Of a DNA stretch of 11,078 nt, positions 1-11,078 are shown piece after piece (positions within the stretch are counted from its first letter, which is position 1; each line of letters begins with the position of its first letter). The stretch spans positions 1-11,078 of the IMG/VR virus record IMGVR_UViG_3300035698_006061; one strand, 5' to 3'. Origin of the DNA: a virus. Below the pieces are notes generated by a model. The model saw only the letters and a list, made by a program, of their open reading frames with translations. It was not told the DNA's origin and did no database searches. The position numbers and the translations under genes were made by a program.

Positions 1-127
1 ACTATAGCAGAAATTGTTCTTCCAATCCATCCACCTATAATACATGTTGGTTTGCATCCTCCAGCGTGTAGTGGAAGTCTATGGCAGTATTCGCATGGTT
101 TAGTTATTTCTTTCATTTTGTTTTTCA
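1..127. repeat. Terminal overlap, copy A: exact duplicate of 10952-11078, defining a 10,951-bp closed unit
   Basis: Base-by-base comparison of both ends: actatagcagaaattgttcttcc...ctttcattttgtttttca is present at both. 1-116 is therefore the same DNA as the 5' part of the 72-aa gene at 10849-11067, not a second gene. Confidence 0.95.
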
Positions 128-192
128 ATTCTGTCCATGTTCACCTCCCTTTTTTAATGTATCTTGGAAGTTTGATAATCTTCTAGCTTCTC
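119..192. repeat. 74-bp perfect direct repeat, copy A (partner 10814-10887)
   Basis: tgtttttcaattctgtccatgttcacctcccttttttaatgtatcttggaagtttgataatcttctagcttctc occurs at both sites; mismatches flank both ends (118 vs 10813, 193 vs 10888). On the minus strand it carries an SD (GGGAGGTGA), an ATG and 6 codons (MDRIEK). Confidence 0.95.
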
Positions 193-517
193 TCTGTTCC
201 TTGTTAAGTATAACATGGCAGTCGTGGCAGACAAAAACGAATTCATCAGTTAGCACGGGTTTCGTTATATGGTGGTGTTCTGTTGCTTTACAGCCACATT
301 TTACACATAATGCACCCTTGAATGGATATTTTTGCCTTGTTAGCCTCTTTATTATCCTCTCTTTTCTAGCTTCAGGTCGTTTTTCGCTTGCATAGTTGTT
401 TGCTTTTTGACTAGCTTGTGCCTGTGCAATACGTTCTTCCCGATGTGCCATGTAATATAATCTTCCATATATTCTTCTTCGTTCCTTTTGAGCTTCTGTT
501 ATTATTCTTTTATTCAT
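125..517 (-). CDS. HNH-family endonuclease (phage terminase-associated type)
   Basis: 130-aa ORF with CVKCGCKATEHHHI...VFVCHDCH, i.e. CxxC...HH...CxxCH, the zinc-coordinating HNH pattern. Basic N-terminus. SD GGAGGT lies 6 nt upstream, and ATGA overlaps the preceding stop. On the circle it sits just upstream of terL, as HNH genes do in HK97-like cos phages. Confidence 0.7.
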   Translation of the reverse strand: MNKRIITEAQKERRRIYGRLYYMAHREERIAQAQASQKANNYASEKRPEARKERIIKRLTRQKYPFKGALCVKCGCKATEHHHITKPVLTDEFVFVCHDCHVILNKEQREARRLSNFQDTLKKGGEHGQN

Positions 518-768
518 CTTATAACCTCCATTTTAAGTTCATTGATAAGGTCGCATATTTTCTTGCCTTTCTCTGTTAAGCATACATCTCTATGCCTTCC
601 TGCTCTGTTTGACTCTACTAAACCCATATCTTCTAAGCCTTCTACTAGCCTGTAGACTGTTGTATTGATTACTCCAATCTTTTTTGAAACTTTAATTAAA
701 GATAGCTCTGGAGTTTTCTTTATCTCGTTTAAGAGTCTTGCAATGTTTACATTAATTAGAGTTAGCAT
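514..768 (-). CDS. Winged helix-turn-helix transcription regulator (MarR/ArsR-like)
   Basis: 84-aa ORF. HTH plus wing pattern: LIKVSKKIGVINTTVYRLVEGLEDMGLVESNRAGRHRDVCLTEKG. Its start overlaps the end of the upstream RHH gene. Confidence 0.75.
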   Translation of the reverse strand: MLTLINVNIARLLNEIKKTPELSLIKVSKKIGVINTTVYRLVEGLEDMGLVESNRAGRHRDVCLTEKGKKICDLINELKMEVIR

Positions 769-1178
769 TCTTCTTCCTTGGCTTGTTTAATTAAATCTGT
801 GTAGTGTATTCCTGTCATCTTGCTCCAAACCTTAGCAGGGCCAATAACGTCTTTCTTTTCTTCAAGTAATCTTCTAAGTGCTATCATTGCTTTGAATGTA
901 TTTACTTTTAGACTCTCTTGTTCACTTACTTCGTTCTTCTCTGCAATTGCTAACATTTTTAACCAATGCTCTTCTTTAGCAGCTACTCTTTCTTTTTCGA
1001 TTTCGATTTCTTTTATCTTCATAGTAATCTTATCTACCTTCTGTTCTCCATCCTGCATGTCTGCATCTATAAGAGCTTGCTGTATAAACTTACTGAAGTT
1101 GAAACCTGCTATTGTAGTTTTTCTACTAGCGAGAATTTCTTCCACGTGTTCGTTTAATGTAATACTGTGTGTAACCAT
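762..1178 (-). CDS. Ribbon-helix-helix (CopG/Arc-like) DNA-binding protein with a coiled-coil C-terminal extension
   Basis: Start placed at internal Met43 of the 180-aa track ORF (MVTHSITLNEHVEEILASRKTT...FSKFIQQALID, a strand-helix-helix pattern). The 42 residues upstream translate AT-rich promoter DNA (IYILVYTKVCIFLLIYAY). A TATA-like box lies 21 nt upstream of this ATG. Confidence 0.6.
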   Translation of the reverse strand: MVTHSITLNEHVEEILASRKTTIAGFNFSKFIQQALIDADMQDGEQKVDKITMKIKEIEIEKERVAAKEEHWLKMLAIAEKNEVSEQESLKVNTFKAMIALRRLLEEKKDVIGPAKVWSKMTGIHYTDLIKQAKEEEC

Positions 1179-1199
1179 AATTAAACTAAAAGAAACTCC

Positions 1200-1206
1200 T
1201 TTATAA
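1200..1206 (-). promoter_or_regulatory. TATA/box-A-like element for the RHH-wHTH-HNH operon
   Basis: The minus strand reads ccTTATAAA-21 nt-ATG(1178). An AAGGAG lies 17 nt from the ATG, probably too far for an SD. The geometry fits an archaeal TATA about 25 nt upstream of a leaderless or short-leader start. Confidence 0.4.
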
Positions 1207-1434
1207 GGATATGCATAAATTAATAGAAATATACATACCTTTGTATATACTAGTATGTATATGCTTTCTAGTTTCAATTTGAACCTACCCTTTAACCCTA
1301 ACACTTACTAACCTGTGTATATATCTCTATATATAGGTATATCCTCATTTGAGTACATATGTATCTATATAAGTTACTATATACCTATATACTCCCTATT
1401 CTATTCTTTAAAGAATATGTATATCTCTTTTTTT

Positions 1435-1489
1435 TATATATATATATATAATATATATATATATTATAATAATAATAATAATAATAATA
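1435..1489. repeat. Compound microsatellite: (TA)8 then (AT)7 then (ATA)8
   Basis: Read directly: 1435-1450 TA repeats, 1451-1464 AT repeats with a phase shift, and 1466-1489 eight ATA units. Confidence 0.9.
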
Positions 1490-1579
1490 GTAAGTAGCCT
1501 CTCAGCTCGAAAACTCGCTGTTTAGTAACTCCTCTCTCAGAGTCATGTCTTTTCATTCCTAAAGGTGCGGGAAGTCGGG

Positions 1580-1614
1580 CTCTGCTTTAGCGAGTCTATG
1601 CGAGTATTGCAGAG
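1580..1614. repeat. Hairpin presenting a double GCGAG motif
   Basis: CTCTGC (1580-1585) pairs with GCAGAG (1609-1614). The 23-nt loop is TTTAGCGAGTCTATGCGAGTATT, containing GCGAG-N5-GCGAG. Confidence 0.6.
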
Positions 1615-1786
1615 ATTAGACTGACACGGTTGTCTTGGATTATATTAAAGGGTGGAAATATTATAAAAAATTTCTCTATGAGTCTTTTTTTTTATGAAAA
1701 ATTTCTTGGAGAGTCGAGATTTAACAAAACTAAATACCACTAATAACCGCTAAGAACTACAACTACATACATACATACTACTAAAT

Positions 1787-1808
1787 ATGGGCGACCAACA
1801 TAGCCCAT
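1787..1808. repeat. GC-stem hairpin, GGGC-N10-GCCC family member
   Basis: ATGGGC (1787-1792) pairs with GCCCAT (1803-1808), with the 10-nt loop GACCAACATA. Confidence 0.6.
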
Positions 1809-1888
1809 GTATACATATACATATAATCATACTACTATTACTAACTCCAAATCTCATACATTCAATCAATACTAATACATACACTATT

Positions 1889-1918
1889 AGCCCTCTAAGG
1901 GGCGAGTATGCGAGCCCC
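1889..1918. repeat. Iteron/hairpin unit 1: AGCCCTCTAAGGGGCGAGTATGCGAGCCCC
   Basis: GGGGC (1899-1903) pairs with GCCCC (1914-1918) around the 10-nt loop GAGTATGCGA. Alternatively, GCCC (1890-1893) can pair with GGGC (1900-1903). Contains GCGAG-TAT-GCGAG. Confidence 0.75.
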
Positions 1919-1960
1919 ATATATATTTACTTAACTAATTAATACTTTAAATAACTAATA

Positions 1961-1988
1961 AGCCTCTAAGGGCGAGTATGCGAGCCCT
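1961..1988. repeat. Iteron/hairpin unit 2: AGCCTCTAAGGGCGAGTATGCGAGCCCT
   Basis: Near-identical to unit 1 and 72 bp downstream. Each of the three C/G runs is one base shorter than in unit 1. The stem is AGGGC/GCCCT with the same 10-nt loop. Confidence 0.75.
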
Positions 1989-2160
1989 GTAGTACATTAT
2001 ACTAACTTTATTAATAAGATTGATTAGAGAGGCTCCTAGACCCCTTAGATATTCCTTTAGAGTAGAGGTGTATGGGAGTATGATATAAAGACTAAAGTAG
2101 AATTTCTATGAAATTCTAATATCAGGGGAATATATAAACACTGCTATATTTCTTTGTAAT

Positions 2161-2176
2161 AAAGGAAATATCCTTT
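2161..2176. promoter_or_regulatory. Perfect palindrome AAAGGA-AATA-TCCTTT (candidate operator)
   Basis: 6-bp arms and a 4-bp spacer, read directly. Related GGAAATAT / GGAATAT strings occur at about 1654 and 2126. Confidence 0.3.
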
Positions 2177-2302
2177 AATTTAATATTGTTAGTATTGTAC
2201 TATGGTAATAGAATTGGTTGGTGGTCAAAAGTGAGGAAAATTCAATCTAAACACTTACATAGTCATGTATATAGGTAAGGATATAAGTAATGATATAAGT
2301 AC

Positions 2303-2767
2303 TTAAGCAAAAGTAGCATCAAATATAATAGTGCCATCAAGTGTAGCTGTATCAATAGTATGATTAGTATAAGTAAGTACAAGTGTTTGTGTACCTTTGT
2401 CAGTAGTTACTGTTTGTTGAGTTATGTCTGTACCTGTATAAGTAATGGTAGATGTGGCAACTGAAACACCTTTTAATGACCATGTAATACTTTGCATGAA
2501 ACCACCTGAATATGTTGGTTCTGCCTTATCATATAAAGGTAAGTCAAATATTTCATTATTATTAGCATATTCTTTGTTAACTATGTCTTTATTTTTTGAT
2601 GGTTCTTCCTGTACTGTACCTTGTTTTATTGCAATAGAGTGGACAATATTCTTATCATCCATGTTATCAAAGTTACCTGCTCCTTGAGGTCTATGCATAC
2701 CATCTCGTTTCTTAGCATTGCTAGCTTTAAACATTGTCTTAAATGGGTCTTTAGGTGCTCGTGCCAT
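2303..2767 (-). CDS. Hypothetical beta-rich virion protein (candidate fibre/receptor-binding or tail-associated)
   Basis: Start placed at Met18 of the 171-aa track ORF (MARAPKDPFK...) because the upstream codons overlap the 57-aa gene. The C-terminal half is T/S/V/I-rich with alternating beta-like pattern (ITYTGTDITQQTVTTDKGTQTLVLTYTNHTIDTATLDGTIIFDATFA). Last gene of the structural block. Confidence 0.5.
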   Translation of the reverse strand: MARAPKDPFKTMFKASNAKKRDGMHRPQGAGNFDNMDDKNIVHSIAIKQGTVQEEPSKNKDIVNKEYANNNEIFDLPLYDKAEPTYSGGFMQSITWSLKGVSVATSTITYTGTDITQQTVTTDKGTQTLVLTYTNHTIDTATLDGTIIFDATFA

Positions 2768-2775
2768 AAGAATAA

Positions 2776-2949
2776 TTAAGCTGCAGAAGAAATTGTCTCG
2801 TAAGCTGAGCCAGTCCAAACTTTCAACTTGTTAGTTGTAGAATCATAGAAAACTGTACCTGTTTGAGGTGCTGCTGGTAAAGCTGTAGTAACCAATCTTG
2901 GTGCAACGAATGCGCTAGGCATTACAATATCACCGATAACTTCTGTCAT
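2776..2949 (-). CDS. 57-aa protein with a fibre-like motif (not in the supplied ORF track)
   Basis: Hand translation: MTEVIGDIVMPSAFVAPRLVTTALPAAPQTGTVFYDSTTNKLKVWTGSAYETISSAA. SD GGAGGT lies 6 nt upstream of the ATG at 2949; the TAA stop is at 2776-2778. Confidence 0.55.
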   Translation of the reverse strand: MTEVIGDIVMPSAFVAPRLVTTALPAAPQTGTVFYDSTTNKLKVWTGSAYETISSAA

Positions 2950-2988
2950 TATGCTACCTCCATTATAGCTTTAATTGTCTTAGAATTC

Positions 2989-2994
2989 AAAAAA
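2989..2994 (-). terminator. Oligo-T (T6) run immediately after the capsid gene stop
   Basis: The minus strand reads TAA-TGAGTAC-TTTTTT-GAATTC. Oligo-T tracts are the established archaeal intrinsic termination signal. There is no preceding hairpin, so it is not a bacterial rho-independent terminator. Confidence 0.35.
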
Positions 2995-3001
2995 GTACTC
3001 A

Positions 3002-3862
3002 TTATGCCTGAGTGTTCGTAATCTTGTAAATAGCTGCAGGGTCTGTAACCTGAACATGGCCAATTTCCCAAGAACGAACTGTGAAATTTATTCCTTTGTC
3101 TTCAACTACTGCACTTGTTAATGGTGTAGCTGCTCTCCATGTAGCTGCTCTTTGTCCAATAACTATTAATGCTTCATCTGCTGTTACACTTGTTGAGACA
3201 ATAATTGTTAATCCAGCAACTTGTCCAACTCTTCCGTTAGAAACAACATCTGCTGTCTTAAAACTTGGATTGTTGATAACTTTGCTGTTCATCATTAAAT
3301 TTCTGTAATCTTTTGGGCTTAATAAAAGGTATCCGTTCATTAAAGCATCGTAATTGCTCTCGAATAATGTTTGTTCACCTGTTAGAATGTCTCTGATAGG
3401 GTCTCTATCTGTTGCTGTTGCATCATCCCAGTTTGCTACTGCTGCTGCAGTTGAAATACCGTCAGCTCCTGATAATGTTGTATAAATATATGAATCTACT
3501 TGGCTAGCAATACTTCTTGCTACTCTTAAGATTGTTCTTGCTTGTACATCGATAGCATCTGTAAGCTTATCTTCTAAGAAAATAGTACCTTCTGCTGCGA
3601 ACTTAATGTTTTGTCCTTGTACTTTAGTCCAACTTGGGTCTACGTGTGGAAATGCAGCTCCTCTTGCTACTCCTTGTACACTAACTCCTTCACCTGTTGC
3701 AGATAATTCAGTTGCTGTTTCTCTGTAATAAGTTTCTGTCCATTTAGAACTAGATTGATTAAGCAATACTTGCTTCATTTTGAATTGTTTTAAAGCAAAT
3801 CCTTTAACTGCTCTTTCAACATTTTCTCCTCGAATATCTACCATTCCATTACTATCAGCCAT
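3002..3862 (-). CDS. Major capsid protein (HK97-fold type, no delta domain)
   Basis: 286-aa ORF directly after the scaffold-like and decoration-like genes. A/T/V/G-rich and Cys-free. SD-like GAGGGTGA upstream. Assigned from position, size and composition, not from a named motif. Confidence 0.7.
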   Translation of the reverse strand: MADSNGMVDIRGENVERAVKGFALKQFKMKQVLLNQSSSKWTETYYRETATELSATGEGVSVQGVARGAAFPHVDPSWTKVQGQNIKFAAEGTIFLEDKLTDAIDVQARTILRVARSIASQVDSYIYTTLSGADGISTAAAVANWDDATATDRDPIRDILTGEQTLFESNYDALMNGYLLLSPKDYRNLMMNSKVINNPSFKTADVVSNGRVGQVAGLTIIVSTSVTADEALIVIGQRAATWRAATPLTSAVVEDKGINFTVRSWEIGHVQVTDPAAIYKITNTQA

Positions 3863-3863
3863 C

Positions 3864-4259
3864 TTAACACTTCACCCTCACTAATATTGACTCACTGGTT
3901 GTTCCAGATTGTCTAGCGTATCCTACTACTTCTTTTAATCCTGCTGCTGTAGCGTCATCTGCTAATGTTACTGTGTTAACTCCAGAAATTTTAAGTGGGT
4001 CACCTGCTGTAACTGTAGCACTTACTACCATCTCGTAAATTCCATCGTTAGAATAAGTTAATTTTGTAGAATCATCAGCACTGTCTTTTTCCATTGTAGC
4101 AATTCCTAGTGGTATTTCACCATCTGCAGAACTAGCTGAACCTGTGTTAGGGTCTGTTAATTGTAAAAGAGTTCCTTTAGCAATTGTAACTCCTGCTGCT
4201 ACTGTACATTCTGGAAATCTGTCTTGTAGCTGAGTACTTAATGTTGCTTCGTTTGCCAT
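3864..4259 (-). CDS. Head decoration / capsid cement protein (DUF2190-like)
   Basis: 131 aa. Pattern AAGVTIAKGTLLQL...GIATME...GIYEMVV...VTAGDPLKISG...VVGYARQ...ILVRV matches the small beta-barrel DUF2190 pattern as I recall it. Sits immediately upstream of the MCP. Confidence 0.55.
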   Translation of the reverse strand: MANEATLSTQLQDRFPECTVAAGVTIAKGTLLQLTDPNTGSASSADGEIPLGIATMEKDSADDSTKLTYSNDGIYEMVVSATVTAGDPLKISGVNTVTLADDATAAGLKEVVGYARQSGTTSESILVRVKC

Positions 4260-4283
4260 TATAATTAAATTAAATAAAAATAG

Positions 4284-4290
4284 TTTATAA
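4284..4290 (-). promoter_or_regulatory. TATA/box-A-like element for the decoration-MCP unit
   Basis: The minus strand reads ccTTATAAA-24 nt-ATG(4259). No SD precedes the ATG. It has the same ccTTATAAA core as the site at 1200-1206. Confidence 0.4.
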
Positions 4291-4302
4291 GGATTGCTAT
4301 AA

Positions 4303-4467
4303 CTAATCCTCTTTTTCTTCTGTTTCGGGCTCTTCAGGGCACTTTTCTAGTGCTTTCTCAAAAGCTGCGATAACAATCTCGTGAATTGCAATACCTTCAG
4401 TGTGTGCTAAAAGTGCTGCTTTAGATGCTTCAAGTTCCCTTAGAATTGATGTTCTAGATAAATCCAT
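4303..4467 (-). CDS. 54-aa acidic helical protein (not in the supplied ORF track)
   Basis: Hand translation: MDLSRTSILRELEASKAALLAHTEGIAIHEIVIAAFEKALEKCPEEPETEEKED. Its ATG overlaps the end of the scaffold-like ORF by 14 nt. It fills an otherwise empty 190-nt gap. Confidence 0.45.
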   Translation of the reverse strand: MDLSRTSILRELEASKAALLAHTEGIAIHEIVIAAFEKALEKCPEEPETEEKED

Positions 4468-4783
4468 CTGCTGCTAATGGGTTTACTTCACCTAACATTA
4501 GTTTCTCTGCAAATTCTTCATCAGTTAAAGGTCTGTCTTCTTCTTTATTCATGCCTGCTTCTGCTCTACCACCTAGAATGTTTCTTGCTTGGAGTGCTTC
4601 TGTTCTATCGTTCTGTATTCTTAGTGCCTCTGAGGCTTTCTCAATCCTTTCAGCTGCATCGTTTGCGGCTTCAAGCACAGGAGTTGTCTGCTGCTGAATC
4701 CTTTCATTGCTATTTTCAACTGCTCTTTCTGCTGGTTGTTCAGTTTTTTGTGTTTCATTTTCTTCCATTTGTACTACCTCCAT
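4454..4783 (-). CDS. Scaffolding-like protein
   Basis: 109 aa, highly charged and predicted helical (E/Q/A/R-rich). Sits upstream of the decoration and MCP genes. Strong SD GGAGGT 7 nt upstream. No protease gene is present, consistent with a separate scaffold. Confidence 0.5.
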   Translation of the reverse strand: MEVVQMEENETQKTEQPAERAVENSNERIQQQTTPVLEAANDAAERIEKASEALRIQNDRTEALQARNILGGRAEAGMNKEEDRPLTDEEFAEKLMLGEVNPLAADGFI

Positions 4784-4800
4784 TATATTACTAATAAGTT

Positions 4801-6036
4801 TTAGAATAAGCCAAAGTTCAAAGCACTCTTACCGTATTCTTCTTGCTTTACTATCTTTGTATCCAGTCCATATTTAATTAATATTGCTAGTTCCTCTGGT
4901 GTTAGAATATTACCTGCGTTTCTCTTTCGGATTGCTTCAAATAATAATGTTCTTTCTTGGAACTCAGTATCATCTTCTGCATCACTTCTCTCTTGTCCAG
5001 ATTTGAAAGCCTCATCTCTAGCAGTTTGTTTCTCTGCGAAGGCTTGGTCTCTAGTATTACTTTCTTCTCTCAACCTATCAAACTTACTTGCTGTTGTTTC
5101 CTGTGATTCTGATACTAACCTCATGTTCTCGTTAGCTGTTACTAAATTGTTTTCCACTGTGCTTCTGAATTGTTTACCAAATGGCCATAGTGCTGGGTTA
5201 ACTATTGTGTTAATCTTTGTGAATTTAAGTGCTCCTTCAATAATCTGTATCTGTCCTTGCATTTGCTCTATAGCATCTGCTCTTGTTATCTCGTTGTTAT
5301 CAAATCTATCTAATATCTTAGATGTATAGAAGCTTGCTGCTGATGCACCATTGTCTGCTGCTAACCATTGTGTTAATGTACTACCACCAACATATGTACC
5401 TATTGCTACTGTAAGTTGTTTCTTTGTTAATCCAATGAATGTTTTCTTTGTTGCGATGATTGCTAGGTCTTTAGCTGCTTGTTGAATTGCTATTTTGTTT
5501 ACTTCTGCCTGTAAGTATGATGGGTTAATTCCTAACTTAGCTGCTTCTGCTGCTACTTTACTTGAACTTGCTGCTCCACCAGTTGTTATTAAACCTTTGA
5601 TTGCTGTAATTCCTGCACTTGTTGCTAATACTGCTGTAGCTGCTACTGCTGTACTTATTAGTGTTGTACCTATTACTTTTCTTGCTTCATCTGTATCACC
5701 TCCTCTAATATTTGCTCTACTCTCTGATACTGCATCTGCTCCAGCTCTTATTCCTTCTGTAAATGTAGTTTTTGGTTGGCTTAATGGTGCTGATAGTATA
5801 TCTAATGCTCTAGCTCCACCTCTCTTTAACTTATCTCCGAATGTTGGTGCCTCTGTAGTACTGATTGGTTGCTTAGATGCTCTAGATACAGCTGAACTTG
5901 GACTTCCACTAACGCTACCTGGACTGATTGCACTGCCTGCTTTAGGTGTACTAGTTGTAGTTGTCTTCTTTGCTCCTGGCATTTCTCCTCTTATAAATCT
6001 CTTTCCTATACTCTTAAGTTTACTTAAAATTCCCAT
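4801..6036 (-). CDS. 411-aa virion-associated protein (candidate internal/ejection or tape-measure-like protein)
   Basis: Start placed at Met21 (MGILSKLKS...), whose ATG overlaps the stop of the 50-aa gene (TAATG). It has an S/T/P-rich N-terminal third, a central A/T/G/I hydrophobic stretch (VIGTTLISTAVAATAVLATSAGITAIKGLITTGGAA) and a charged helical C-terminus. Confidence 0.55.
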   Translation of the reverse strand: MGILSKLKSIGKRFIRGEMPGAKKTTTTSTPKAGSAISPGSVSGSPSSAVSRASKQPISTTEAPTFGDKLKRGGARALDILSAPLSQPKTTFTEGIRAGADAVSESRANIRGGDTDEARKVIGTTLISTAVAATAVLATSAGITAIKGLITTGGAASSSKVAAEAAKLGINPSYLQAEVNKIAIQQAAKDLAIIATKKTFIGLTKKQLTVAIGTYVGGSTLTQWLAADNGASAASFYTSKILDRFDNNEITRADAIEQMQGQIQIIEGALKFTKINTIVNPALWPFGKQFRSTVENNLVTANENMRLVSESQETTASKFDRLREESNTRDQAFAEKQTARDEAFKSGQERSDAEDDTEFQERTLLFEAIRKRNAGNILTPEELAILIKYGLDTKIVKQEEYGKSALNFGLF

Positions 6037-6188
6037 TATAATAATATTCCCGCAATTATTGCTAGTGTTATTGTGATTGCTGTTGTACACATCCACCTGT
6101 TAAGTTTAACTTTACCATTAGTCTGTATTACATGTTTTTCTATTTCACATATCTTATCATAGATTTCTCTGTTTGTTACTGTTACCAT
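6036..6188 (-). CDS. 50-aa C-terminally membrane-anchored protein (not in the supplied ORF track)
   Basis: Hand translation: MVTVTNREIYDKICEIEKHVIQTNGKVKLNRWMCTTAITITLAIIAGILL. TAATG overlaps occur at both ends (with the portal stop and with the start of the 411-aa gene). Confidence 0.5.
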   Translation of the reverse strand: MVTVTNREIYDKICEIEKHVIQTNGKVKLNRWMCTTAITITLAIIAGILL

Positions 6189-7279
6189 TATTGTCCAACT
6201 CCTGCTTGTGTATCATTAGGCTGTGCTGCCTTCGTTGGTCCATCTTTAGCATTGTCGCTTAATAGTTCGTTTTCTAAACTTGCTGGGAATACTAAATCAA
6301 TATCCATACCTAGTTGTATACCAACTTGTTCCTCAATGAATGTTTGGTCTTCTTCTACACTCTGTTGGAATGCAAGATAAACTATCTTAGCACTTGCTTC
6401 TGTAAAGTTCTTTGAGTTTCCTACTATAATCTTTGGTGTTGCACATGCCTCGTAGAAAGAATCGTTAAGTGAATCAATCCATGTTAGTGGGTTTAATGTA
6501 CTATTAGGGCTTACGCTTAATTGTTCTGGAACTACTGCTCCCTTTGGTACATATAAGTTTTCATTTAACTTGTAAGCTTTATCCATCTTTGTTTTGAATG
6601 CTGTAATCTTAGCTGGTACATCTGTATCTAAGTGGAATATCATTCTTGGATATACATTTCTATGCATTACTATCTTGTAATCTGCTATTGCTTCATTTCT
6701 TGCTAAAATTATATCTTCTAGTTTTTCAACCACACTTACTCCATGAATCTCATCTGCTACTCTGTTACGACTTAAGTGAAATATTTCCTCTTGTTGGAAT
6801 GTTTTAGTACCACCATTTTTTGTTTTACTAACTTGTTCGTATTTCTGAATTATCCCTTTGTTGTTTGCCACAATCAGTATAGCTCCTGTATCAAGCACCT
6901 TTAGATTTATTAAATTGCCTTCTTCGTCTCTGATGATTTCTGCATAAGAATCTCCTCCAATCCACATAGTTCTAATCATATTTTCTATAATTGTATTAAA
7001 TGTATCTCTACCATAGCCTTTAATCTGGTCTATAACAAGTTGTGTATCTGTATCTGTTTCAATTCCTTTACCTATTGTCCATGTAGCTCTAGCATCAATT
7101 GTACTGTTTAGCTCTGGTATTTGTTTGTAGTATCCGAAATATTTTGACCAATTTGATTGTTGCCACCTTGTTTCTTTTTCCCCAGTTGCTGCATCTGTGT
7201 TCATTATAGATACACTGTAATCTGTCATCTGATTTGTTAAATCACTTATTACTGTATTTCCTATATCGTTATCTGCCAT
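6188..7279 (-). CDS. Portal protein (HK97/SPP1-type family)
   Basis: 363-aa ORF. Its size, the central segment EEIFHLSRNRVADEIHGVSVVEKLEDIILARNEA and the polar/acidic C-terminal tail are typical of phage portals. It lies in the head module with terL and the MCP. Confidence 0.8.
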   Translation of the reverse strand: MADNDIGNTVISDLTNQMTDYSVSIMNTDAATGEKETRWQQSNWSKYFGYYKQIPELNSTIDARATWTIGKGIETDTDTQLVIDQIKGYGRDTFNTIIENMIRTMWIGGDSYAEIIRDEEGNLINLKVLDTGAILIVANNKGIIQKYEQVSKTKNGGTKTFQQEEIFHLSRNRVADEIHGVSVVEKLEDIILARNEAIADYKIVMHRNVYPRMIFHLDTDVPAKITAFKTKMDKAYKLNENLYVPKGAVVPEQLSVSPNSTLNPLTWIDSLNDSFYEACATPKIIVGNSKNFTEASAKIVYLAFQQSVEEDQTFIEEQVGIQLGMDIDLVFPASLENELLSDNAKDGPTKAAQPNDTQAGVGQ

Positions 7280-7497
7280 TAATCAAACATATCCTTTATG
7301 TCTTGTAACATTCTTTCTGTCTCTGGTATGTGAGCTGTTACTGCCAAATTTAATTGTCTTACTTTGTATGCGCTTAATTCTTGCTCTGTTTTGATATACA
7401 TAGTCTTATCCTCAATCCTTAATCCAAGGTTACCTACACCTGCTTCATAAATTAATTGTGCTAAGTTCACTGTTGTTAAGTCGTATTTGTATTCCAT
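7279..7497 (-). CDS. Hypothetical 72-aa protein
   Basis: ORF with SD AGGAG about 10 nt upstream and TAATG junctions at both ends. No recognisable motif. Confidence 0.55.
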   Translation of the reverse strand: MEYKYDLTTVNLAQLIYEAGVGNLGLRIEDKTMYIKTEQELSAYKVRQLNLAVTAHIPETERMLQDIKDMFD

Positions 7498-7787
7498 TAT
7501 AATTGTACTCCTGTTAGTCTTGTTACTGCTGGCATTTGACTTGTTTTAATTTTAAAATCTGTAATATTTTTTATTTCATTATCTATACTATTTTTAACTT
7601 TTAAAAGTATTTCTGTATTATCCATATCTGATGGGAATGAAAATCCATATACTTTGTCTTTAATTATATTTTCTGTTTTATCTAAACCAAAAATAATTGT
7701 ATCTACAAAAGTATCTCCAGTGTTTGTTAGCCTAACTGATACTTTTCTTCTCATACTTTCATCTTTGTCTTCTATTATTGTTATCAT
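7497..7787 (-). CDS. Hypothetical 96-aa protein
   Basis: ORF with SD-like GGTGGAG upstream and TAATG junctions at both ends. No recognisable motif. Confidence 0.55.
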   Translation of the reverse strand: MITIIEDKDESMRRKVSVRLTNTGDTFVDTIIFGLDKTENIIKDKVYGFSFPSDMDNTEILLKVKNSIDNEIKNITDFKIKTSQMPAVTRLTGVQL

Positions 7788-8362
7788 TAGTTAAACTCCA
7801 CCACTGTAAACCATACTGTAGTCTCATCATCGTGTACATTAACTGTTACTGTATCAGCTGCTGATAAAAATGCATTATAACTAGATGATTGTGTAAATGT
7901 ACTTGATTCATCTGGTGAGGTAGCTCCTTGAACAAAACACATTGCTTTACTTGTATCAACTGTAGTTATTGTATAGTCTCCATCATTTAATAAATGTCCA
8001 AGTTGTTTTGAACTTACAACTCCAGCTATATATTCTATAACCATATAACTTACATTACAAGTATTATAATCATTAATTCTTGAAGCTGTTACTGTTGTTT
8101 CATCTGTTAACGTAAGTTTGCATAATGTATCAGCTGGTCTTGAAGCACCATGAGTATTACCATTGAAAACTACAACTGAATTCTCTGTAACTACTGCATC
8201 TATTGTTGCTGTATTTGAAGTACTACTTACCGCAATTACTCCGTGCTGTATTGATTGTATAATTGTATCACTTGCTGCTTTAGGTGTACTAGTTGTGTTT
8301 AATGAGTTTGTTTCCCTTACATCATCTTGGCCGAATAATCCACCTGGTATACTTAGAACCAT
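7787..8362 (-). CDS. 191-aa beta-rich protein with internal tandem duplication (candidate tail/receptor-binding protein)
   Basis: Two homologous halves: SIQHG...ATIDAV...VVVFNG...TVTASR...NVSYMVIEY and SKQLG...TITTVD...MCFVQG...TVTVNV...TVWFTVVEF. SD-like GGTGA lies 3 nt upstream. Confidence 0.6.
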   Translation of the reverse strand: MVLSIPGGLFGQDDVRETNSLNTTSTPKAASDTIIQSIQHGVIAVSSTSNTATIDAVVTENSVVVFNGNTHGASRPADTLCKLTLTDETTVTASRINDYNTCNVSYMVIEYIAGVVSSKQLGHLLNDGDYTITTVDTSKAMCFVQGATSPDESSTFTQSSSYNAFLSAADTVTVNVHDDETTVWFTVVEFN

Positions 8363-8802
8363 TTTTTCACCGCCAATTCTTTATTTAAAATAGGAAGTAA
8401 TCCTTCACGTCTTTGTCCAAATGGACTTGCTTGTCCTGCTCTTACACTTGCATCGTTCATATTTATACCTTGACTTATAATTTCTCCAATTAATCTACCA
8501 AATTTACCTACTCTGTTATCTGGGTCAATACCTACTTCTATAGTTTCTCCTTCAATTTGATTTCTTAGCCAATCTCCTGAATCTTTTCCACCTTCACTTA
8601 ATTCTTTAGCATCTATTCTAGCAAATCTAATAGGGAAGTTAAATTCTCTAAAGTTTGTACTTACTGTAATTGTATCTCCATCATGAACCTTCTCTACTCT
8701 TGCTTCAAAGTTCCCTACTATCTGTTTATGTGGGCTTTCGAAGTAGAATTCATTCATTTGAGCATTAGTTAGCTCAGGAAACGCTTTAAAATCATGCTCC
8801 AT
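8353..8802 (-). CDS. Staphylococcal-nuclease-like (thermonuclease/SNase fold) nuclease
   Basis: 149 aa. VHDGDTITV...IRFARIDAKE...GKFGRLIGEI...MNDASVRAGQA mirrors the SNase signature (DGDT...R-L-x-G-I-D-A-P-E...Y-G-R-x-L-A...N-x-x-L-V-x-x-G-x-A). Confidence 0.8.
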   Translation of the reverse strand: MEHDFKAFPELTNAQMNEFYFESPHKQIVGNFEARVEKVHDGDTITVSTNFREFNFPIRFARIDAKELSEGGKDSGDWLRNQIEGETIEVGIDPDNRVGKFGRLIGEIISQGINMNDASVRAGQASPFGQRREGLLPILNKELAVKKWF

Positions 8803-9157
8803 TTATGAAGTCCTGTTGTCGTTTATCTCTTAGCAAGCTAAGTCCTCTTAAAGAACTGTCTCTTAATACATTAATCATGTCTTCTGCCTCAATACGTGAG
8901 TTATATCCAGTCATATCGTACTGAATTACGTAAATTGCTGCTAAATCACTAGCTATTTGGGTCAAAATCTGCCTTACATCTGTGTTTAATGTAGTATATG
9001 CATCACTAAAATTAAATCTACAAACTGCATTGATTGTACTCTCTGCTTGACCTACAAAATCGTTAATAAAAGCCTCTGTATTAGACACCACGCTAGCTCC
9101 TGCACCTACTTTTTGCTGTACTTGTGCTGTTGTTGCGAATATTCCTGTGTCTGCCAT
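8792..9157 (-). CDS. Head-tail connector/adaptor-like protein (gp6-like), tentative
   Basis: 121 aa. An N-terminal helical pattern (TEAFINDFVGQAESTINAVCRFNF) resembles HK97 gp6-like connectors. First gene after terL. Assignment is by weak pattern and context only. Confidence 0.4.
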   Translation of the reverse strand: MADTGIFATTAQVQQKVGAGASVVSNTEAFINDFVGQAESTINAVCRFNFSDAYTTLNTDVRQILTQIASDLAAIYVIQYDMTGYNSRIEAEDMINVLRDSSLRGLSLLRDKRQQDFINGA

Positions 9158-9178
9158 TGTGAAATTTGGCCTTTAAAG

Positions 9179-9186
9179 TATATAAA
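9179..9186 (-). promoter_or_regulatory. Box-A/TATA element TTTATATA upstream of the connector-to-scaffold gene block
   Basis: The minus strand reads TTTATATA-21 nt-ATG(9157), with no SD before the ATG. TTTATATA fits the published methanogen box-A consensus TTTAWATA. Confidence 0.4.
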
Positions 9187-9197
9187 GACTGCTATAA

Positions 9198-10478
9198 TTA
9201 GTACACATATATGTTTAATGTCTGGTCTTTGACGCACCAAGCGCCTCTGACGATACCATCTGCAATATGCATATAATTACCAAAGTATTTAGTTCCCATA
9301 TTTGATTTCTCGTACTGCACTGACTTGAGCGACATGAAGATTTCTGGGTCATCAAGTAGTTTTATTTCACCACGTTCCATCAATGCTAGTAAGTTATTGT
9401 AGATGTCTTCCTTTAGTACTCTCTTTTTTCTCTTTTCATCGTAAGTTAGTGGTCTATTCATGTTATTTATAGCTACTGTCTTTCGTTTTGTCTCATCTGT
9501 AGTAAGTAATTGGTCTAGAACTCCGACTCCCATTCCACCATCATCAATGAATATTTGTCTAAAGTCATATGCTTTGTCTAAATTGATAATATGTCTTGTA
9601 GTTTCTGTAGTTAGAGTTTGTTTTGTAATTTGATTCTCTACTTGTTCTATAGCTTTTGGGTTTGTACGGTCAAATACTTCAAAAGTACTTTCATCTTTTC
9701 CCATTCTTGCTATGTCCACTCCTAAGTAGTAACGCTTTCCTTGTTGTATATAACCTCTACGCTTCAAACACATACATCTTTTGATTAAATCATCTGGGAA
9801 AACTTGTCTTAATGAATCTATAAAGGCTCCTTCATATTCTTGAGCATACTGAGTTACTGTCATTCTTCCTCTTTCTCTAGCTAAATGCTCTAATGCCTTC
9901 TCTTTCTGTAATTGTGTCCAACTATCTGTGATTTCTCTCTCATTTATCACTGTTTCACTACTTATTTGGAAGTTAGTAAAGTTTGTATCGTGAAATGCTC
10001 TGTGAAAGAAGCCTGAATTTCCATGTGGGGTTGATAATAGTACAATATCTCCACCTGTTGTAAGTAACATTGGTGTAATTGCTTCCCATACTAGTTCTGG
10101 TACAAAGGCTGCCTCATCTGCATATAGTCTACTTACTGTGAAACCTCTGATACCATGGCCATCTAAGCCCGTAGGAAGGCATCTAATGACACTTTTGTTG
10201 TTTAACTTGACCTTTGATAGTGTTGGTTTGTCTTTTCCTTTCATTATGTATGATTTATAGTTGTCTTGTAAGTACCACATAGTCTTTTGGAATAACTCTT
10301 GTGCTTGTCTTTCTACAGAAGCTATGATTAAAATGCTGGAACCTGGGTTCAAGGCGGCATAATCAGCTGCATCTTTCGCTATTACAGTTGACTTGCCTAC
10401 CTGTCGCCCTGAGCAAAGAACAATATTGCCTTTTGTTTCTAGGACTTTCTCTTGCCATTTATCTAATTTGATTTTCAT
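9198..10478 (-). CDS. terL: Terminase large subunit (packaging ATPase + nuclease)
   Basis: 426 aa. Deviant Walker A LCSGRQVGKST (compare T4 gp17 SRQLGKT). Walker B with catalytic Glu: RLYADEAAF. C-terminal RNase-H-like acidic motifs: YLGVDIARMGKDES and IFIDDGGMGVG. Confidence 0.92.
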   Translation of the reverse strand: MKIKLDKWQEKVLETKGNIVLCSGRQVGKSTVIAKDAADYAALNPGSSILIIASVERQAQELFQKTMWYLQDNYKSYIMKGKDKPTLSKVKLNNKSVIRCLPTGLDGHGIRGFTVSRLYADEAAFVPELVWEAITPMLLTTGGDIVLLSTPHGNSGFFHRAFHDTNFTNFQISSETVINEREITDSWTQLQKEKALEHLARERGRMTVTQYAQEYEGAFIDSLRQVFPDDLIKRCMCLKRRGYIQQGKRYYLGVDIARMGKDESTFEVFDRTNPKAIEQVENQITKQTLTTETTRHIINLDKAYDFRQIFIDDGGMGVGVLDQLLTTDETKRKTVAINNMNRPLTYDEKRKKRVLKEDIYNNLLALMERGEIKLLDDPEIFMSLKSVQYEKSNMGTKYFGNYMHIADGIVRGAWCVKDQTLNIYVY

Positions 10479-10487
10479 GAGTATGAA

Positions 10488-10505
10488 GTCCCCTTCAATG
10501 GGGAC
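10488..10505. repeat. Hairpin repeat H2: GTCCCC-TTCAAT-GGGGAC
   Basis: 6-bp GC-rich stem. The 17-nt string tatgaagtccccttcaa (10482-10498) is identical to 10651-10667. Confidence 0.85.
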
Positions 10506-10532
10506 AAATTGATTTAGTAGACTTCTCTACAA

Positions 10533-10597
10533 TACACACGGCAGGATTCGAACCTGCAATAGTCCTACGGGAATGACCCGTCCAGTTCCTCGTGTGT
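10533..10597 (-). ncRNA. tRNA-like element: perfect acceptor stem and T-arm, truncated core
   Basis: Minus strand: ACACACG-N33-GCAGG-TTCGAAT-CCTGC-CGTGTGT-A. It has a 7-bp acceptor stem, a canonical 5-bp T-stem and a GTTCGAATC T-loop. Only 33 nt lie where positions 8-48 need about 41. The core folds either as ACGGG-TCATT-CCCGT (CAT centred in a too-small loop) or as GGAA-N12-TTCC (D-arm-like), not both. No encoded CCA. Confidence 0.5.
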
Positions 10598-10656
10598 AAT
10601 CAATGAGGGCTTTAAGCTTCCATTTACGGAAGTCCCACACCCTCGATGACTATGAA

Positions 10657-10679
10657 GTCCCCTTCAAAAAAATGGGGAC
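10657..10679 (-). terminator. Hairpin repeat H1 with an internal T7 run: GTCCCC-ATTTTTTTGAA-GGGGAC (minus strand)
   Basis: Begins 8 nt after the stop of the 48-aa gene. T7 is a strong archaeal-type oligo-T terminator. The T-run lies in the loop, not after the stem, so it is atypical for a bacterial intrinsic terminator. Confidence 0.4.
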
Positions 10680-10686
10680 GATTAAT

Positions 10687-10833
10687 TTAATCTGTTTTGT
10701 TTGTGTACTTGTGCACTAGTTCTTTTGCAATAGCATATCTCTTTAAAGAGTCGTTTAATCCTACTTCAAAGAATTTTACTGTCACAAGTATCTCTTTTAC
10801 AGTTGTTCTAAGCTGTTTTTCAATTCTGTCCAT
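10687..10833 (-). CDS. 48-aa hypothetical protein (not in the supplied ORF track)
   Basis: Hand translation: MDRIEKQLRTTVKEILVTVKFFEVGLNDSLKRYAIAKELVHKYTNKTD. A strong SD GGGAGGTGA lies immediately upstream of the ATG at 10833. Its RBS and first 6 codons lie inside the 74-bp repeat. Confidence 0.5.
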   Translation of the reverse strand: MDRIEKQLRTTVKEILVTVKFFEVGLNDSLKRYAIAKELVHKYTNKTD

Positions 10834-10887
10834 GTTCACCTCCCTTTTTTAATGTATCTTGGAAGTTTGATAATCTTCTAGCTTCTC
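10814..10887. repeat. 74-bp perfect direct repeat, copy B
   Basis: Identical to 119-192. The two copies lie 256 bp apart on the circle and bracket the 72-aa gene. Confidence 0.95.
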
Positions 10888-11067
10888 CTTCTTTAATTTA
10901 TTAAGTGATTCGCTTAATGTTTTCATAGCATCTAGACTATGTTCTAACATTACTATAGCAGAAATTGTTCTTCCAATCCATCCACCTATAATACATGTTG
11001 GTTTGCATCCTCCAGCGTGTAGTGGAAGTCTATGGCAGTATTCGCATGGTTTAGTTATTTCTTTCAT
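10849..11067 (-). CDS. 72-aa Cys-rich protein (CxxC...CxxxC) with a hydrophobic segment and a helical tail
   Basis: MKEITKPCEYCHRLPLHAGGCKPTCIIGGWIGRTISAIVML...KLKKEKLEDYQTSKIH. It has no SD of its own. Its ATG lies inside a 12-codon uORF that starts at the repeat-borne ATG (position 138, copy A). The last 13 codons are encoded by repeat copy B. Confidence 0.55.
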   Translation of the reverse strand: MKEITKPCEYCHRLPLHAGGCKPTCIIGGWIGRTISAIVMLEHSLDAMKTLSESLNKLKKEKLEDYQTSKIH

Positions 11068-11078
11068 TTTGTTTTTCA
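10952..11078. repeat. Terminal overlap, copy B (identical to 1-127)
   Basis: Offset of 10951 between the copies. The 127-bp length matches a common de Bruijn k-mer, so it signals circular closure of the assembly rather than proving a physical terminal repeat. Confidence 0.95.

Follow-up and report, generated by a model that had tools for sequence, protein, structure and literature searches.

Capsid-forming phage-inducible chromosomal islands (cf-PICIs) encode a capsid, portal, adaptor, and terminase and no tail, and satellite P4 gives a small T=4 head and has no capsid gene of its own; both types are bacterial integrated islands or plasmids that carry an integrase, regulators, and primase or replication genes. 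Satellite P4 measures about 11.6 kb, and Mycoplasma phage P1 measures about 11.7 kb. The smallest cultured tailed phages are P1 (~11.7 kb) and the phi29-like Picovirinae/Salasmaviridae (16 to 20 kb) (PMC11476376 and general background). The linear genomes of P1 and phi29-like phages bear terminal proteins, and these phages use a protein-primed family-B polymerase together with a packaging ATPase of the phi29 type. A catalogue of complete "Twilight-zone" genomes in IMG/VR lists 536 capsid-bearing entries below 11.6 kb, among which tail genes are rare; that study characterizes a temperate clade of the human gut with an integrase, RepA, and a mean genome length of 8.9 kb, in which terminase, portal, and connector are missing (Aguilar et al., 10.1101/2025.06.18.659913). 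Here, we analyzed IMG/VR virus record IMGVR_UViG_3300035698_006061 (positions 1 to 11,078; this whole 11,078-nt stretch is called the window), which closes on itself into a unit of 10,951 bp. The window is best explained, with a probability of about 0.68, as an autonomous minimal capsid-and-fiber virus of the Duplodnaviria that belongs to a large uncultivated marine family, most likely infects archaea, and would rely on host machinery for replication. An earlier note made from the sequence alone, here called the original prediction, placed this genome at or below the size floor for elements with a terminase-portal-HK97 module; its 10,951 bp do fall below the quoted sizes of P4 and P1, a statement qualified by the HK97 genomes under 11.6 kb already catalogued.

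The window resembles the "Twilight-zone" mini HK97-fold genomes in being complete, terminally overlapping, metagenomic, below 11.6 kb, and equipped with an HK97-fold capsid protein, and several of its relatives are themselves IMG/VR entries in that size class. In contrast to the gut clade, the family of the window is marine, carries terminase, portal, adaptor, and fibers, has neither integrase nor Rep, and shows a podovirus-like capsid profile. With P1 and the phi29-like phages it shares a minimal genome, an HK97-fold head, a portal, and a short appendage, although the small T=3-type head of the window is a prediction. It differs from them in its T4/gp17-type large terminase subunit (TerL) with a nuclease domain and in its circular assembly map, and no polymerase of the phi29/P1 type or any other was matched in the window (Pfam, PHROGs). 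The T7-like podoviruses (Autographiviridae, P-SCSP1u) provide the nearest solved capsids, at the limit of detection (E = 1.3e-4), and have a similar order of portal, scaffold-like, capsid, and fiber genes; the internal proteins that T7 ejects offer a possible analogy for the window protein g10. Unlike these podoviruses, the window has no RNA polymerase, DNA polymerase, or homolog of the gp11/gp12 tail tube, is about four times smaller, and encodes a T4-type TerL. Archaeal tailed viruses include HGTV-1, the best cultured TerL match, and have archaeal-type regulation in common with the window, but they range from 19 to 140 kb or more and possess full tails and replication modules; the Asgard verdandiviruses (~19 to 20 kb) were compared by description only. 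Charybdis elements (4.6 kb), ANME-1 chaacviruses (double jelly-roll capsid, protein-primed polymerase), and haloarchaeal satellites were considered and set aside as different entities. Judged by its genes, the family has the defining features of the terminase-portal-HK97 lineage except a recognizable tail.

The closure of the window rests on an exact terminal repeat, in which positions 1 to 127 recur at 10952 to 11078, leaving a nonredundant unit of 10,951 bp with 35% G+C. All credible open reading frames (ORFs) lie on the minus strand, where 20 genes occupy ~86% of the unit. Because 127 is a common largest assembler k-mer and the end overlaps of related contigs are likewise of assembler-k size (25 to 141 nt), the overlap proves a circular assembly path and not physical ends; the molecule itself may be circular, terminally redundant and permuted, or bounded by short direct terminal repeats. 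We examined 166 related loci from IMG/VR, from Joint Genome Institute (JGI), TARA, and whole-genome shotgun (WGS) metagenomes, and from GTDB genomes. Related contigs peak at 10 to 12 kb and stop at 13.3 kb, save for one multi-turn contig of 15.8 kb. Exact overlaps between the two ends, found in 16 locus entries (15 distinct contigs), yield units of 10.0 to 13.1 kb; at the far end of two contigs, L017 (13,297 bp) and L167 (15,808 bp), the genes of the beginning recur, so that these contigs cover more than one turn of ~11.3- and ~11.9-kb units, respectively. The ~2-kb repeated stretch of L017 is only 89% identical to its first copy, so the assembler passed between strain variants, a sign of coexisting microdiverse populations. 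Across contigs, the capsid gene occurs at every possible offset, as expected for randomly opened circles. A search of 185,579 species-representative genomes returned two matches, both of them whole small contigs binned into metagenome-assembled genomes (MAGs), and no family member was found embedded in a host chromosome. The original prediction had described a complete, self-closing genome with its genes on one strand, and had named an internal piece of a larger prophage or contig as the outcome that would overturn it. The overlap, the size ceiling of the relatives, their self-overlapping units, and the multi-turn contigs all agree with the former, and no contig of the family extends past one unit into other DNA.

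The gene order TerL-adaptor-(SNase)-x-portal-x-g11-g12-cement-capsid-g15-g16 is conserved across the family, whose core comprises TerL, adaptor, portal, g11, g12, cement, capsid protein, g15, and g16. The capsid family is deep: a profile search of 1.84 billion cluster representatives recovered capsid clusters at 50% identity numbering 319 at E ≤ 1e-3 and 102 at E ≤ 1e-30, nearly all of 280 to 300 residues, and 576 capsid homologs were found in a metagenomic protein collection. In the same kind of collection, the adaptor had 954 homologs, every one on a contig of ≤13.5 kb. The lineage had been suspected to be undescribed, and our results support this: tblastn with the capsid protein found no match among 50,697 deposited genomes of phages and archaeal viruses, and a full-text literature search returned no description of the family (coverage was incomplete, so this is absence of evidence only). 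Taken together, these results indicate that the window represents a whole genome from a deep and diverse family and not a fragment.

The packaging and head genes that define this family were assigned by profile searches against Pfam, PHROGs, and PDB, which agree with the predicted TerL, portal, HK97-type capsid, decoration protein, and staphylococcal-nuclease-like protein (SNase) (Table 1). TerL matches T4/RB49 gp17 and P74-26 TerL in PDB and contains a Walker A motif, GRQVGKS, read from the sequence. Its closest cultured match is the archaeal (haloarchaeal) virus HGTV-1, with 27.8% identity over 94% of the protein, and it is also similar to TerL of Thermus and T4-like phages. The gene next to it, g04, had been called a connector. 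A profile search with g04 against PDB sequences gave no match; its AlphaFold2 (AF2) model (predicted local distance difference test [pLDDT] = 88) was compared by Foldseek, for which the best PDB hit was the Mu neck subunit gp36 (template modeling [TM] score 0.53 to 0.57), and the BFVD hits included entries annotated as Mu gp36 or as head-to-tail adaptor (best E = 2e-4, TMq 0.72). On this structural modeling, g04 is a head-to-tail adaptor and a core gene of the family, and the connector call stands. The SNase aligns with thermonuclease at the catalytic residues (DGDT, R..D..E, GR) and was found in 39 loci, or ~40% of the relatives that have that region.

The major capsid protein has, on sequence-profile grounds, an HK97 fold. 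The best PDB matches of the capsid family profile were the capsid of the cyanopodovirus P-SCSP1u (1.3e-4) and 9jwb (2.5e-4), both of borderline significance. Some capsid proteins of the family show weak encapsulin (PF04454) matches, and an NCBI protein named "encapsulin [Heimdallarchaeota]" is a homolog that sits on a 12.1-kb contig corresponding to one whole genome of the family. An encapsulin system was nonetheless rejected, given the presence of a portal and TerL and best PDB profile matches that are phage capsids, with no encapsulin among them. The cement gene has one to three paralogs in relatives, with two or three in tandem in L082, L090, L100, L117, L122, L125, L126, and L159. No profile match to a capsid maturation protease was found in the window.

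Two genes upstream of the cement gene, g11 and g12, and possibly g10, are candidate scaffold genes by position, composition, and conserved C termini. The extreme C terminus of the g11 family (...EYAEALxRGEVNPLKEDGFI) is strongly conserved, and g11 of the window ends in ...GEVNPLKEDGFI. The g10 protein has a hydrophobic segment near residues 120 to 150 and a conserved C terminus, ...SALNFGLF; a subset of g10-type proteins end in ...S-x-LNFGL[FLI]. Only eight g10 homologs were found, and g10 is linked to the commonest post-portal variant only by profile-profile comparison (hhalign, 93% probability). The post-portal slot almost always contains a protein of 300 to 445 residues; a few genomes (L100, L113, and L122) lack this protein altogether. 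The AF2 model of g10 has a pLDDT of 58 and is half disordered, with confident long helices at residues 220 to 390, and Foldseek found no fold match beyond generic helical bundles; a role as tail or nozzle protein was rejected on the basis of this all-alpha, half-disordered model and its generic matches. Helical proteins that vary except for a conserved tail, such as g10 and g11, would be expected where a scaffold or internal protein binds to the shell, and g10 is a candidate internal, ejection, or scaffold-like protein. The C termini of g10 and g11 also recall the scaffold or cargo-targeting peptides known to attach to the inner surface of HK97-fold shells.

Head size was estimated by volume at the usual packing density. 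A genome of 10,951 bp would require an inner diameter of ~35 nm and an outer diameter of ~40 to 42 nm, and the estimated capacity of a T=3 HK97-fold shell is 9.6 to 12.1 kb, versus 16 to 20 kb for T=4. We therefore consider T=3 a better guess than T=4, since 10,951 bp falls within the T=3 capacity and the family range of 10.0 to 13.1 kb fits the same shell; the modeled head is probably a T=3 particle of ~41 nm.

The most distal part of the conserved block, g15 and g16, encodes a fiber or receptor-binding pair. Within the g16 family, the N terminus is conserved (..DIVNKxYVD..), whereas the C termini vary from 170 to 870 residues. Family members match Collar (4e-6), YadA_head, Phage_depo_C, BclA_C, and GLEYA, and the L017 homolog from the g15/g16 region carries PTL_trimer (weak) and Collar (faint). 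Members of the g15 family had no Pfam match, and the g16 profile had no match among PDB sequences. Accessory proteins of relatives add Laminin_G_3, beta-helix/pectinesterase, galactose-binding, and Fn3_arc domains and PHROG tail-fiber families. Such a combination of a constant N terminus, a varying C terminus, and adhesin-type domains is characteristic of receptor-binding proteins. Judging by the genes recognized, the tail is reduced to adaptor and fibers.

This tail-poor gene set bears on the nearest competing explanation, a capsid-forming satellite comparable to the cf-PICIs, which would make its own small heads and packaging machinery and depend on a helper virus for a tail and perhaps for replication and lysis. 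A 10- to 13-kb genome with capsid, portal, adaptor, and terminase genes and without tail tube, replicase, or lysin resembles cf-PICIs as they are generally known, and a gp36/gp6-type adaptor is the part on which a tail made elsewhere would dock. Both the family and the cf-PICI/P4 elements fall into the 10- to 15-kb class. However, the family has its own fibers, archaeal-type promoters, and no integrase or integrated copies: no integrase or excisionase occurs in the window or in 55 near-complete relatives, no integrated copy is present in the species-representative genomes, and no contig runs beyond the unit into other DNA. Rapidly diversifying fiber and receptor-binding genes belong to the core, and an element that takes its tail from a helper would not need them; no helper-interference or helper-sensing genes were recognized. 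The original prediction had drawn an analogy to the small capsids of P4 and the Staphylococcus aureus pathogenicity islands (SaPIs), which finds no support here, as neither an integrase nor an integrated copy was found. On balance, a satellite is unlikely, and an autonomous minimal virus accounts better for the data. The window and 92 accessory proteins from the 55 near-complete relatives show no recognizable integrase, Rep, polymerase, primase, helicase, or lysin; a DNA methyltransferase in one relative (phrog_954, 3e-63) and HNH endonucleases in several are the only enzyme-type accessory genes detected among the 92.

To ask in which domain of life such a virus would replicate, we turned to its transcription signals. 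In archaea, the B recognition element (BRE) and TATA box lie ~26 to 27 nt from the transcription start, and first genes are leaderless. In the family, TTTAAATA (≤1 mismatch), starting between -33 and -26 with a mode at -29, is present in 64% of 129 distinct cement-gene upstream regions and, at the same positions, in 48% of 63 adaptor-gene upstream regions, against a background expectation of 1.6%. The family consensus, 30- to 40-fold enriched, is GAAA plus TTTAAATA at -35 to -22, with the purine-rich GAAA at -35 to -32; with ~190 distinct upstream sequences behind it, this element is a ready-made promoter model for the family. Promoters in the window were identified by direct inspection together with the family statistics, as a position-weight-matrix scan was too blurred, and boxes matching the family motif precede g04, g13, g18, and g19; TTATAAAG lies 28 nt upstream of the g18 ATG. 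Internal genes (g11, capsid) instead have GGAGG/GGTGA ribosome-binding sites, and in relatives a Shine-Dalgarno sequence, GGAGG/GGGGT, lies at -16 to -8 in the g11/g12 region. Sigma-70-like sites occur at the frequency expected by chance (40 found versus 39.9 ± 7.2 expected). By its sequence, this promoter geometry is that of an archaeal BRE/TATA driving leaderless mRNA.

Protein content points the same way. In 16 relatives, an 86- to 88-residue gene lies directly upstream of TerL (e.g., L017 6625-6891, L003 10084-10344, and L006 866-1129), and the profile of its product matches only archaeal Hjc resolvases in PDB (Pyrococcus furiosus 1gef, 2e-4; Sulfolobus 4tkk and 1hh1). The window has no Hjc-type gene and carries an HNH-like gene in that module instead. 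Relatives have been binned with Woesearchaeota, Heimdallarchaeota, and Nitrosopumilus, most bins being archaeal, although MAG binning of small contigs is weak evidence either way. We regard archaeal hosts as probable, because the BRE/TATA boxes at -29, the Hjc genes of relatives, an archaeal-type winged-helix regulator in the window, the HGTV-1 match of TerL, and the mostly archaeal bins coincide in favor of them.

A miniature bacteriophage, whose host might be a marine or sediment bacterium with a small genome, would account for the one relative binned with a Spirochaetales MAG, for the GGAGG/GGTGA sites of internal genes, which bacteria also use, and for the resemblance of the capsid to solved cyanopodoviral capsids and of TerL to those of Thermus and T4-like phages. 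Set against this, TTTAAATA at -29 with its purine-rich element fits the geometry of TATA-binding protein (TBP) and transcription factor B (TFB) and not the -35/-10 spacing of sigma-70, whose sites are at chance level; Hjc-type resolvases and Fn3_arc domains occur in relatives and a TrmB/HVO-type winged-helix protein in the window; and the other binned relatives fall into the archaeal bins named above. We judge a bacterial host improbable. That the window is not a whole replicon at all but an assembly artifact or a piece, bounded by repeats, of some larger virus or provirus deserves next to no weight: a 127-nt overlap is the usual k-mer and could arise from any 127-nt repeat, but dozens of independent assemblies from different samples hold the same gene set at 10 to 13 kb and nothing longer, their gene order is circularly permuted between contigs, and two contigs pass one full unit into the same genes.

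Several observations weigh against an autonomous, archaeal, minimal virus. The nearest solved capsid relatives come from bacterial podoviruses, and one relative shares a bin with Spirochaetales, as noted above; the evidence for the host consists of the spacing of the promoters and a handful of archaeal-type proteins rather than matches to clustered regularly interspaced short palindromic repeat (CRISPR) spacers. No tail tube, nozzle/knob, tape measure, or sheath gene was recognized in the window or among the 92 accessory proteins, although the uncharacterized ORFs may include divergent tail proteins. The failure to recognize a tail tube, nozzle/knob, maturation protease, small terminase, or lysis gene weakens the case for autonomy. 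About half of the genes have no detectable function, and a replication initiator could hide among them. The roles of g10, g11/g12, and SNase were deduced from position, composition, and conserved C termini, and we infer the genome topology and the form of the particle. Lastly, the ORF-free region at 1305 to 2302 shares only a simple (TA)n repeat with relatives, and composition and repeats make it a candidate origin.

That ORF-free region contains (TA)n/(ATT)n tracts at 1435 to 1493 and GGGCGAGTATGCGAGCCC-like 18-mers at 1789 to 1806, 1900 to 1917, and 1970 to 1987, two of which are identical and spaced 70 nt apart. Its layout resembles iterons plus an unwinding element. An alternative genetic code was rejected for this region, as each of the six frames is crowded with stop codons of every kind and with low-complexity sequence, and it was taken as noncoding. 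A structured RNA was likewise rejected, since folding was no better than that of shuffled sequences (z = +0.7 and +0.3) and no Rfam match was found.

The neighboring genes were predicted to include a three-gene regulator/HNH block. The regulator part stands, as g19 matches a set of mostly archaeal Pfam families (DUF6293_C, HTH_IclR, TrmB, HVO_A0261_N, HVO_A0114, and ArnR1-like). The HNH call for g20 is weak, relying on phrog_2340 at 7e-4 and a motif read by eye, CVKCGC..EHHH..CHDCH (CxxC...HHH...CxxCH). The most widespread gene of the variable module in relatives, cluster c1 (~150 residues, ~25 loci, e.g., L015 8423-8878 and L004 236-655), is absent from the window. The N-terminal half of its product appears by eye to be like an oligonucleotide/oligosaccharide-binding (OB) fold (..GK.GKPY.R.vF.v.GK.YStFD..); a PDB profile search gave no match, and Pfam gave noise only. 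The c1 product is a candidate for a role in DNA binding or replication. In the adaptor-portal interval, the positional equivalents of g06 to g08 in relatives are unrelated proteins of ~200 to 290 residues; g06 to g08 themselves have no profile matches and no homologs among the 166 loci. Many relatives have a similar-sized gene at the position of g09b, and the positional homolog in L017 matches Pfam YvrJ; g09b may be a membrane or egress factor.

A tRNA-like element lies upstream of TerL. It was rejected as a true tRNA gene, as ARAGORN found none and the Rfam tRNA score of 25.7 bits is below the gathering score of 29; the window as a whole contains no tRNA by ARAGORN and no Rfam family at threshold. 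Direct repeats of ~30 nt at ~10646 to 10680 and ~10477 to 10505 (minus strand), with the motif gtCCCCATT(TTTTT)GAAGGGGACTTCATA(G/C)TCAT, flank the element, and the second copy extends into the TerL start codon, in a manner that resembles a duplication or insertion footprint. Similar elements occur in seven relatives (L009 ~3665-3729, L015 9050-9113, L024 1965-2029, L089 ~10680-10755, L131 7704-7786, L140 ~510-583, and L152 5228-5293). In each minihelix, an acceptor stem of 6 to 7 bp and a canonical T-arm (GGTTCGAATCC) are combined with an anticodon arm that is degenerate or truncated, and three of the elements contain CAT. All of them lie between genes on the coding strand, within the variable module upstream of TerL, and they often directly follow a conserved gene of ~150 residues. 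The L015 element scores 38.5 bits for Rfam tRNA, above the gathering score, with an "anticodon loop" of 1 nt. A hand-written descriptor gave 19 matches versus 2 to 8 in shuffled sequences, of which about eight are convincing; the seven-sequence alignment is poor in its 5′ half.

Table 1. Features of the window, ordered from the high-numbered end (all on the minus strand unless marked with a point; aa, amino acids)
Feature	Coordinates	Strand	Description and basis
g01	10849..11067	-	72 aa, Cys-rich (CxxC...C...C), spans the junction; ORF without family match, not conserved in relatives
g02	10687..10833	-	~48 aa, ATG preceded by GGGAGGTGA; not conserved in relatives
tRNA-like element	10533..10597	-	7-bp acceptor stem, canonical T-arm (GGTTCGAATCC), short anticodon-like hairpin with CAT, no D-arm
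TerL	9198..10478	-	426 aa, T4/gp17 type, ATPase and nuclease halves; Pfam Terminase_6N 2.6e-11; phrog_2 7e-44 over residues 3-407
TATA box TTTATATA	9179..9186	-	29 nt before g04 ATG; leaderless archaeal-type promoter
g04, head-to-tail adaptor	8792..9157	-	121 aa, Mu gp36/HK97 gp6-like helical fold; AF2 and Foldseek
g05, SNase	8353..8802	-	149 aa, staphylococcal-nuclease-like Ca-dependent nuclease; phrog_452 2.9e-11; PDB thermonuclease 8e-6
g06, g07, g08	7279..8362	-	191 aa (Ser/Thr-rich, beta-type composition), 96 aa, and 72 aa; variable adaptor-portal slot
Portal	6188..7279	-	363 aa, core gene; PF04860 8.7e-11 (above cutoff); phrog_12 1.2e-14
g09b	6036..6188	-	50 aa, C-terminal hydrophobic (transmembrane-like) helix; directly after portal gene
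g10	4801..6036	-	411 aa from ATG at 6036; all-alpha, fast-evolving, largest protein without assigned fold
g11 and g12	4303..4783	-	109 aa, acidic (4454-4783), and 54 aa; core genes, candidate scaffolding proteins
TATA-like box TTATAAAC	4283..4290	-	31 nt before g13 ATG; putative promoter of cement-capsid operon
g13, cement/decoration protein	3864..4259	-	131 aa; PF09956 2e-5, 25.4 bits versus cutoff 24; phrog_673
Major capsid protein	3002..3862	-	286 aa, without delta domain; PF25209 1.5e-12; phrog_1650 8e-22
g15	2776-2949	-	57 aa; phrog_21412 tail fiber 9e-6
g16	2303..2949 (span of g15/g16)	-	154 aa from ATG at 2767; fiber/receptor-binding pair with g15
ORF-free AT-rich region	1305..2302	.	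30% G+C; candidate origin/control region by composition and repeats
g18	762..1178	-	138 aa from ATG at 1178 (180 aa from GTG at 1304); coiled-coil-like C-terminal half
g19	514..768	-	84 aa, winged-helix (wHTH) regulator, archaeal type; Pfam matches 6e-6 to 7e-3
g20	125..517	-	130 aa, probable HNH-type zinc-finger nuclease; weak, phrog_2340 endonuclease 7e-4
Terminal overlap	1..127	.	Exact 127-nt match to 10952-11078; closes the 10,951-bp unit

If the window is an autonomous minimal virus of archaea, its life cycle may be pictured as follows. Host TBP, TFB, and RNA polymerase would transcribe a few leaderless operons from the BRE/TATA promoters, and host replication proteins would copy the genome from the ~1-kb AT-rich repeat region. 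The HNH nuclease (with Hjc in its place in relatives) and the TerL nuclease would trim branched or concatemeric DNA, and SNase may degrade host DNA to supply nucleotides. A small procapsid would assemble on the portal, scaffolded by g11/g12 and cemented by g13, and TerL would fill it with one genome length of DNA. The adaptor would seal the portal and carry the g15/g16 fibers, giving a very short tail at most, and g10 would travel inside the head and may help the DNA cross the envelope.

We give even odds to the fuller statement that these genomes form a globally distributed deep family or higher taxon comprising the smallest complete terminase-portal-HK97 viruses known, with marine archaea as hosts, a T=3 head bearing an adaptor and fibers and no conventional tail, and host-run replication; some members also carry a tRNA-like minihelix. 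If this holds, the family would mark how far the duplodnavirus body plan can in practice be reduced, to a state in which ~20 genes keep the whole packaging machine, the adaptor, and the fibers without recognizable replication, integration, tail-tube, or lysis genes. The minimal size of a terminase-portal-HK97 virus bears on capsid geometry, on the origins of encapsulins and satellites, and on minimal virus design. Many pipelines discard contigs that are shorter than 10 kb or called incomplete, so such viruses are probably undercounted, and public marine and sediment data contain enough members of the family for comparative studies. Should the host be archaeal, a sparsely known virome would gain a new small-genome lineage, and with it a compact, promoter-defined system for the study of archaeal virus assembly.

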